Below, piece by piece: positions 63,719 through 63,912 of a DNA stretch of 64,000 nt. The translations under genes and the position numbers were made by a program. The stretch lies in assembly GCF_003334335.1 (NCBI RefSeq), contig NZ_QOWQ01000023.1. One strand, given 5' to 3'. The notes beneath the pieces were generated by a model that made no database searches, had not been told where the DNA came from, and saw only the letters and a program-made list of their open reading frames with translations. The stretch is from Escherichia coli. GTDB lineage: Bacteria > Pseudomonadota > Gammaproteobacteria > Enterobacterales > Enterobacteriaceae. Position 1 is the stretch's first letter, and every line of letters begins with the position of its first letter.

Positions 63719-63752
63719 GAGATTCCCTTCATCATGCAAATAATTGATATGC

Positions 63753-63784
63753 AAAAAACCCCGGCCTTATGGACCGGGGTTTTT
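63753..63784 (-). terminator. intrinsic terminator of the rrn operon, just 3' of 5S rRNA
   Basis: CCCCGGCC...GGACCGGGG stem flanked by A6 and T5 (symmetric). Confidence 0.85.
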
Positions 63785-63792
63785 CTAATTTG

Positions 63793-63912
63793 ATGCCTGG
63801 CAGTTCCCTACTCTCGCATGGGGAGACCCCACACTACCATCGGCGCTACGGCGTTTCACTTCTGAGTTCGGCATGGGGTCAGGTGGGACCACCGCGCTAC
63901 TGCCGCCAGGCA
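63793..63912 (-). rRNA. rrfE: 5S ribosomal RNA (120 nt), terminal gene of an rrn operon (rrnE by synteny)
   Basis: Minus strand reads TGCCTGGCGGCAGTAGCGCGGTGGTCCCACCTGACCCCATGCCGAACTCAGAAGTGAAACGCCGTAGCGCCGATGGTAGTGTGGGGTCTCCCCATGCGAGAGTAGGGAACTGCCAGGCAT. Confidence 0.96.

Follow-up and report, generated by a model that had tools for sequence, protein, structure and literature searches.

In Escherichia coli, stable RNA genes can be co-transcribed with a protein gene, as in the thrU-tyrU-glyT-thrT-tufB operon, from which the mRNA is released by RNA processing. To our knowledge, no protein-coding gene of E. coli has earlier been shown to be expressed within the transcript of an rRNA operon. The rRNA operon rrnB, on the other hand, expresses the small RNAs rrA, rrB and rrF by leak of its terminator T1 (Stenum et al. 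2021, PMC8144298), whereby T1 stops 87% and T2 about 100% of the transcripts according to the statement of that paper which cites Orosz 1991. Four of the seven rrn operons of E. coli K-12 are followed by a co-oriented protein gene. Among these, murB behind rrnB, kgtP behind rrnG and dkgB behind rrnH resemble yjaA behind rrnE in orientation, but with gaps between 5S gene and protein gene of 300, 322 and 162 nt respectively, compared with 74 nt for yjaA, the only one of the four without space for a promoter behind the terminator.

Whereas rRNA promoters are generally down-regulated under stress, yjaA has been described as associated with acid and peroxide stress and as having a regulated mRNA. 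The literature searched contained no mapped start site, Term-seq result or read-through measurement for yjaA, and no Term-seq or reporter data on the terminator ahead of it. The original prediction for the rrnE-yjaA junction held that yjaA expression probably depends partly on read-through from the rRNA promoters or on a promoter embedded in the terminator. Here, we analyse this junction at the end of a 64,000-nt stretch of E. coli DNA (the window; contig NZ_QOWQ01000023.1) and in related genomes.

Results

Layout of the rrnE-yjaA junction

The features of the region are as follows, with the basis of each assignment in brackets:

61743-62672, minus strand: metA, the downstream neighbour (arrangement as in K-12)
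62829..63272, plus strand: yjaB, GNAT acetyltransferase, convergent with yjaA (open reading frame list, K-12 annotation)
63335..63718, minus strand: yjaA, coding for a YjaA-family stress response protein of 127 aa, with the stop codon (open reading frame, NF041448, K-12 b4011)
63719..63752, minus strand: yjaA 5' leader, an A+T-rich 34-nt spacer (sequence)
63753..63784, both strands: single intrinsic terminator of rrnE, bidirectional (folds on both strands, scores, covariation)
63785..63792, minus strand: 3' trailer CAAAUUAG (sequence)
63793..63912, minus strand: rrfE, 5S rRNA, last gene of rrnE (RF00001 match, K-12 identity, sequence reading)
63831..63859, minus strand: promoter-like site within the 5S gene, GTGAAA, 17 nt, TGgTAGTGT (score 9.13, 99.92nd percentile)

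At the 3' end of rrnE, which together with its neighbours fills the final 700 nt of the window, the genes rrfE and yjaA and the terminator hairpin between them are thus co-oriented on the minus strand, with yjaA immediately downstream of the rrn terminator as had been predicted. The Rfam model RF00001 matches at 63795-63910 (minus strand) with 90.4 bits against a gathering threshold of 38 and covers model positions 1-120, while the mature 5S rRNA, 63793-63912, is set by identity to K-12 rrfE and by reading of the sequence (...CUGCCAGGCAU). The length of K-12 rrfE (b4010; 120 nt, NC_000913.3 4213040-4213159) together with the sequence bears out the predicted 5S end at 63793. The ATG of yjaA follows 74 nt after this end, both here and in K-12 MG1655, and 34 nt after the final T of the U-tract. 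Identity to K-12 amounts to 99.83% over the final 2.3 kb of the window and to 100% with K-12 derivatives over 96 nt at the junction; the annotation of K-12 MG1655 already includes both rrfE and yjaA (b4011). The motif CAUCAAAU which follows the 5S sequence is also found in 14 related loci, and the transition from CAA to AUU in the trailer, 3 nt past the mature 5S, is presumably the context of the RNase E 'site b' of 9S RNA.

The yjaA gene and its product

The product of yjaA matches the NCBIfam model NF041448, 'YjaA family stress response protein', with 177.4 bits against a cut-off of 125, and a Pfam search retrieved no family match. Homologues, all confined to Enterobacterales, show 42-72% identity to YjaA and share the invariant motif ALEMNEGGLSxVExR. 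The conserved N-terminus M-x-x-LYIQ of 14 homologues begins at the ATG at 63718, which is therefore correctly placed; the predicted start of yjaA agrees with the open reading frame, the NF041448 match and this N-terminus. Within E. coli the pN/pS of yjaA is about 0.3, and its reading frame is intact in divergent lineages.

An AlphaFold model (63338-63718, minus strand; pLDDT 82) shows a single RNase H-like domain of the order beta-beta-beta-alpha-beta-alpha-beta-alpha. Its fold matches are generic only, namely uS11, the N-domain of Ppx/GppA, a MreB-like protein and RuvC at a TM of about 0.45, and these structural matches revealed no functional link to ribosomes.

The hairpin is a bidirectional terminator of predicted high strength

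The hairpin reads AAAAA-CCCCGGUC-CAUAA-GGCCGGGG-UUUUUU, exactly from 63784 to 63753, and consists of A5 (63780-63784), an 8-bp G+C stem with a 5-nt loop (63759-63779) and T6 (63753-63758), the UUUUUU at 63758-63753 directly abutting the stem (U-tract term 4.38). On the minus strand it folds at -22 kcal/mol with a z of -5.45, which was equalled by none of 200 shuffles, and on the plus strand, where UUUUUCU comes next, at -21 kcal/mol with a z of -4.67; the 8-bp stem by itself contributes -14.9 kcal/mol. In a d'Aubenton-Carafa-type score the two directions reach 31.1 and 30.4, compared with 31.8 for rrnC, 33.7 for rrnH and 18.2 for rrnB T2 under the same scheme. Its predicted strength is hence on a par with any rrn terminator, in both directions, and fold and score agree with the earlier description of 63753..63784 as a symmetric and strong terminator.

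In an alignment of 14 sequences, 97.6% of the cells are paired, with compensatory changes in seven of the nine pairs; none of 500 shuffles reached the observed level of covariation, and slid controls were paired to at most 49%. A simple terminator scan did not pick up the hairpin at 63753-63784, most likely because the stem runs through the A5/T6 pairs so that no T-run is left after the 'stem', which is a limit of the scan rule and no evidence against a terminator. The hairpin is a true intrinsic terminator, predicted to be strong in both directions, and clearly the insulator between rrnE and yjaA.

Comparison with known arrangements

With the rrnB T1-T2 region and its small RNAs, the rrnE end shares a gene directly after the 5S gene, the same 5S 3' end (CAUCAAAU) and a hairpin at the position of T2; moreover, nine E. 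coli genomes have a T1-sRNA module inserted ahead of the rrnE hairpin. In contrast, rrnE in the window possesses a single hairpin, 14 nt after the 5S gene and predicted to be strong, where rrnB has a leaky T1, so that it shows neither the dual terminator of rrn operons nor the rrA/rrB/rrF module; the downstream gene is protein-coding, and read-through is a proposal. As in the tufB operon, a co-oriented protein gene immediately follows stable RNA genes, but a strong hairpin precedes yjaA, whereas no terminator is known between the tRNA genes and tufB. The rrnE hairpin resembles bidirectional terminators in that A5 and T6 flank a G+C stem, that both strands fold and score alike and that yjaB on the opposite strand, which has no terminator of its own, points at it; it differs in being located between the 3' end of the 5S gene and the 5' end of yjaA and not between two convergent 3' ends.

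The leader and the search for a promoter

After the U-tract the spacer reads GCAUAUCAAUUAUUUGCAUGAUGAAGGGAAUCUC, followed by AUG. It contains a normal Shine-Dalgarno sequence, GAAGGGA at 63724-63730, and the leader shows no structure in the centroid fold, so read-through RNA should be translatable. A promoter scan of the minus strand found no sigma-70 site between terminator and ATG. In a position-weight scan with every position of the window on both strands as background, no score in the interval from hairpin to ATG exceeded the 96th percentile, while the same scan placed the sites upstream of metA and yjaB at the 99.3rd to 99.97th percentile. The best candidates were TTTTTT-16-CATGAT with 2.1 bits (95.8th percentile) and AAGGCC-17-AATTAT with 1.0 bit (93.8th percentile); the AATTAT at 63740-63745, for which a 15-nt leader would be expected, has neither a -35 box nor a TG extension. 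CATGAT was rejected as a -10 box since the start would fall within the Shine-Dalgarno sequence. With 34 nt of room and no sigma-70 site, any yjaA promoter has to overlap the terminator, or yjaA is read from upstream.

Several other candidates were discarded. Among sigma-32 and sigma-E motifs inspected by eye, CCCCAT in the 5S gene has no TTGAAA partner, and near the end of the 5S sequence GGAACT is separated from TCAAA by only about 8 nt. A direct repeat in the spacer, TTTGCAT-N8-TTTGCAT, combines the generic rrn terminator tail TTTTTGCAT as copy 1 with the conserved GCATGAT as copy 2, and we know of no repeat-binding regulator that its 15-nt period matches. An in-frame upstream TTG at 63754 (139-aa open reading frame) falls within the hairpin and would add an extension that is not conserved. 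Likewise, the frame of an overlapping, out-of-frame 41-aa open reading frame from 63735 is not kept in the homologous loci of Phytobacter (L005) and Kosakonia sp. S29 (L007).

The best sigma-70-like match of the region is the site at 63831-63859 inside the 5S gene, which is identical in all 5S copies examined. It may be due to chance or be a possible source of short 3'-terminal 5S transcripts. Among eight operon segments fused to lacZ, only a 16S segment gave high activity (Takada et al. 2016); a lead from the same paper to own promoters of 3'-distal tRNA genes was dropped, as its reference 18 concerns another subject. On the plus strand, a weak promoter-like site at 63717-63744 (ATGAGA-16-AATAAT, 9 of 12 matches) is directed from the start of yjaA towards the terminator, where a transcript would end within about 35 nt; two such sites were found in the region against 1.6 expected, which is chance level.

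Variation within E. coli

Of 5,426 complete E. coli genomes, 2,591 have the rrn-terminator-yjaA junction and 2,835 lack yjaA, the familiar pattern of yjaA as a Clermont marker. In S88, of a divergent lineage, the sole change between 5S and ATG affects the loop of the hairpin. EC42405 has the entire hairpin swapped for GGCCCAGUC-GGAA-GACUGGGCC; the sequences are identical from UUUUUGCAUAUC onward, identity resuming at TTTTTGCATATC, with the spacer as in the window. A different hairpin next to an identical spacer indicates that no specific -35 box inside the hairpin is being preserved. Compared with S88 and EC42405, none of the 34 spacer positions is changed, which does not differ significantly from the one to two changes expected from a pS of 0.035-0.059. 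Nine genomes, including strain 2017.04.03CC, possess an rrnB-type T1, an rrB-like sRNA and a vestigial 5S end ahead of the hairpin, while yjaA-negative strains have a T2-type hairpin and a REP-like element followed by the yjaB 3' end. The exchange points at the 5S 3' end and at the U-tract suggest gene conversion between rrn operons.

The rrnE 3' end occurs in the common form of a single CCCCGG-type hairpin with yjaA, as T1, rrB-like sRNA and hairpin with yjaA (nine genomes), as the GGCCCAGUC-type hairpin with yjaA (EC42405), as a T2-type hairpin with REP and no yjaA, and, as a fifth form, as T1, sRNA, T2 and REP, likewise without yjaA; these forms were read at L002 3455-3720 (2017.04.03CC), L020 1900-2100 and L028 660-740. 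Downstream of K-12 rrfG, a T2-type hairpin and a REP-like element are followed by a copy of about 60 nt of the yjaB 3' end (about 88% identical by eye), and the small gene yfiS is annotated at this rrnG 3' flank (L025 about 1100-1269, minus strand). The order of the rrnG flank equals that of the rrnE flank in yjaA-negative strains (L019 1740-1925, L020 1740-1935). Recombination between the 5S gene and such a yjaB-like stub might delete yjaA cleanly and lead to its patchy distribution over phylogroups.

Conservation of the junction in other genera

A scan for YjaA with one genome per species yielded 16 loci, in almost all of which a contig end lies 100-500 nt from the gene. Five loci showed a co-oriented 5S gene; the 5S 3' end, the hairpin and TTTTTGC are legible upstream in 14 of 15 loci, with metA downstream in all of those. 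The order rrn-terminator-yjaA-metA is thus ancestral to Enterobacteriaceae and Pectobacteriaceae. The rrn-terminator-yjaA layout extends over three families, Enterobacteriaceae, Pectobacteriaceae and Hafniaceae, whereby Hafnia alvei shows 5S-tRNA-5S-T1-sRNA-T2-yjaA, but actP/yjcH/acs downstream. The distance from the 5S 3' end to the hairpin is always within about 20 nt in the related loci, and across genera the Shine-Dalgarno sequence is conserved along with its spacing.

The distance from U-tract to start codon is more variable. E. coli, L004-L007 and L011 fall at 30-40 nt, a further five genomes at 44-54 nt and four at 79-157 nt. The longer spacers contain good -10 boxes, TACAAT in L010 (score 8.6), TATTAT in L017 (7.4), TATAAT in L015 and one in Hafnia (6.2). 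Three Kosakonia-type genomes place an extended -10 box on the TG of the terminator (TTTTTGCTATTGT, ..TATTCT, ..TATGGT; scores 6.3-6.8), which keep T-12, A-11, T-10 and T-7 while differing at positions -9 and -8. In the loci concerned (L008 about 85-100, L009 about 70-85, L012 about 50-65) TTTTTGC runs into TATTGT, TATTCT or TATGGT, and TGnTATnnT, sharing its TG with the terminator, forms a compact terminator-promoter overlap ahead of the Kosakonia-type yjaA homologue. Short spacers of 30-40 nt, that of E. coli among them, lack a good -10 box and share only GCATGAT(G/A)AA(A)GGAAT, the ribosome-binding region, and TATCAA is common to E. coli and its closest outgroup L004. In L005 and L007, the nearest relatives with a short spacer (30-32 nt), no hexamer ahead of the Shine-Dalgarno sequence combines A-11 with T-7 as a -10 box would. 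From these patterns, the ancestral yjaA probably had its own promoter; the -10 boxes in the longer-spacer and Kosakonia-type species support an embedded promoter there, and the absence of a usable -10 box in L005 and L007 favours read-through in these two.

The homologues in Serratia and Providencia are located away from rrn, 52 and 24 nt respectively behind co-oriented protein genes, and no promoter-like site was seen ahead of the YjaA-family gene in either. In Serratia (L029 2501-3400) the order is HAD-GST-yjaA-GNAT-corA, in which the pairing of yjaA with a yjaB-like GNAT acetyltransferase gene recurs, and in Providencia (L031 1760-2875) the homologue directly follows a LytS/LytTR two-component pair.

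The yjaB side of the locus

The convergent genes yjaA and yjaB are 62 nt apart. The hairpin in this gap (63291-63321) is weak, with a z of about -2 and no U-tract on either strand, and transcripts of yjaB and yjaA may each run antisense into the other gene. As the gap holds no terminator, the reverse face of the rrnE hairpin would stop antisense transcripts from yjaB, halting them past yjaA before a head-on run into the rRNA operon.

Elsewhere in the window, two adjacent matches to naRNA4 (RF02564; 82 and 86 bits) are found at 58338-58513 on the minus strand between open reading frames of 578 and 439 aa. By their position relative to metA we take these frames to be aceK and aceA, in which case the naRNA4 matches would be REP elements of the aceA-aceK gap.

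Discussion

The gene yjaA shares with a member of the rrnE operon the strand, a short gap and the lack of an own promoter, but a terminator intervenes. It thus lacks one defining feature of an operon member and, with no recognisable promoter, also one of an independent unit. We tentatively propose, as a possible although not yet probable reading, that the hairpin is a leaky insulator and that yjaA has two inputs, rrnE read-through for basal mRNA and a second input under stress. The hairpin at 63753-63784 would stop nearly all rRNA transcription 34 nt before yjaA, which in the E. coli lineage appears to have a normal ribosome-binding site and no autonomous canonical promoter, and the mRNA of the growth phase would mostly come from the small fraction of rrnE polymerases that escape. 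In rapid growth, rrn operons initiate tens of times per minute each, and with so large a flux an escape of 1% would equal a modest mRNA promoter. RNase E, which cuts between CAA and AUU in 9S RNA processing, would cleave the read-through RNA 3 nt after the 5S and leave a yjaA mRNA with the terminator hairpin at its 5' end. Under stress, with rRNA promoters down, a second and weaker input would be needed, for which either -35-less initiation in the spacer (-10 AATTAT, 63740-63745) or reduced termination may be considered.

The main competitor is a promoter embedded in the junction, by which yjaA would be a separate, activator- or stress-dependent unit with negligible read-through from rrnE; we regard it as possible, if on the doubtful side. 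AATTAT or TATCAA, just behind the U-tract, would serve as its -10 box, transcription would start about 15-19 nt ahead of the ATG, and the -35 region would fall in the hairpin. The lack of a sigma-70-like site in the spacer favours the leaky insulator, as do the short-spacer relatives L005 and L007 without a usable -10 box, which count against the embedded promoter. The best E. coli candidates reach only 1.0-2.1 bits, a level as good as one random position in 16-25, -35 box and TG extension are absent, and an activator site would find no space except within the 5S gene or the hairpin. The hairpin swap in EC42405 replaces the would-be -35 region and leaves no preserved -35 box. By analogy, leak at rrnB T1 expresses the rrA/rrB/rrF small RNAs within the same operon family, and the YjaA-family genes of Serratia and Providencia, promoterless and 24-52 nt behind co-oriented genes, point in the same direction. 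Conversely, the hairpin reaches a score of 31, compared with 18 for the reportedly about 100% efficient rrnB T2, and its retention ahead of yjaA in all related genera examined suggests selection for insulation and not for leak. A strong and conserved terminator suits an embedded promoter better than read-through, as does the association of yjaA with acid and peroxide stress, opposite to the regulation of rRNA promoters. Also on this side are the good -10 boxes right after the terminator in longer-spacer relatives, among them the Kosakonia-type extended -10 that reuses TTTTTGC TG, and the occurrence of TATCAA in both E. coli and L004. The extra T1 upstream of yjaA, tolerated by nine E. coli genomes, further speaks against dependence on leak, and purifying selection on yjaA requires that it be expressed somehow. 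Of the original prediction, the lack of room for a promoter thus stands, supported by the absence of a sigma-70 site, while the strong, conserved terminator and the stress association weigh against the part concerning read-through.

The promoter search would also fit a nearly silent yjaA, in which the ancestral promoter was lost as the spacer became shorter, the terminator blocks read-in and the gene drifts to loss. Absence from about half of E. coli (2,835 of 5,426 complete genomes) would be explained, and promoter-like boxes occur only in longer-spacer relatives. This is nevertheless improbable given the pN/pS of about 0.3, the intact frame in divergent lineages, the Shine-Dalgarno sequence conserved with its spacing across genera and the reports of regulated yjaA mRNA and of a role in peroxide and acid stress. 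We consider it highly improbable that the promoter-like site inside the 5S gene (63831-63859), with a start about 30 nt before the 5S 3' end, feeds yjaA with a hairpin-escaping fraction independent of rrnE P1/P2. This site is the best match of the region, on a level with the top sites ahead of metA, and conserved because the 5S is conserved, but the 5S sequence may have produced it by chance; as every 5S copy contains it, it is not specific to yjaA, its transcripts still meet the same strong terminator, and high lacZ activity came from a 16S segment only (Takada et al. 2016).

A stricter form of the leaky insulator, in which yjaA is the last, attenuated cistron of rrnE, reached by escape from P1/P2 and released by RNase E, with the layout kept by selection for coupling and not by gene order alone, appears unlikely. 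Hafnia keeps rrn-terminator-yjaA despite different downstream neighbours. If yjaA were such a cistron, YjaA synthesis would follow the product of rRNA promoter activity and terminator leak.

The genes and the junction are already annotated in K-12, and the proposed mechanism is of known kinds, namely the leak which expresses rrA/rrB/rrF and the co-transcription of tRNA genes with tufB. A regulatory connection of rrnE and yjaA is, on the sequence features described here, a reasonable hypothesis. As yjaA is a PCR marker in Clermont phylogroup typing, the structure of the junction and the loss of the gene bear on how this marker is read. If read-through does feed yjaA, it would be the first protein-coding gene known in an E. 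coli rRNA operon transcript, which would extend the rrA/rrB/rrF precedent, and the 'stress' protein YjaA would be tied to the growth-rate control of rRNA synthesis.
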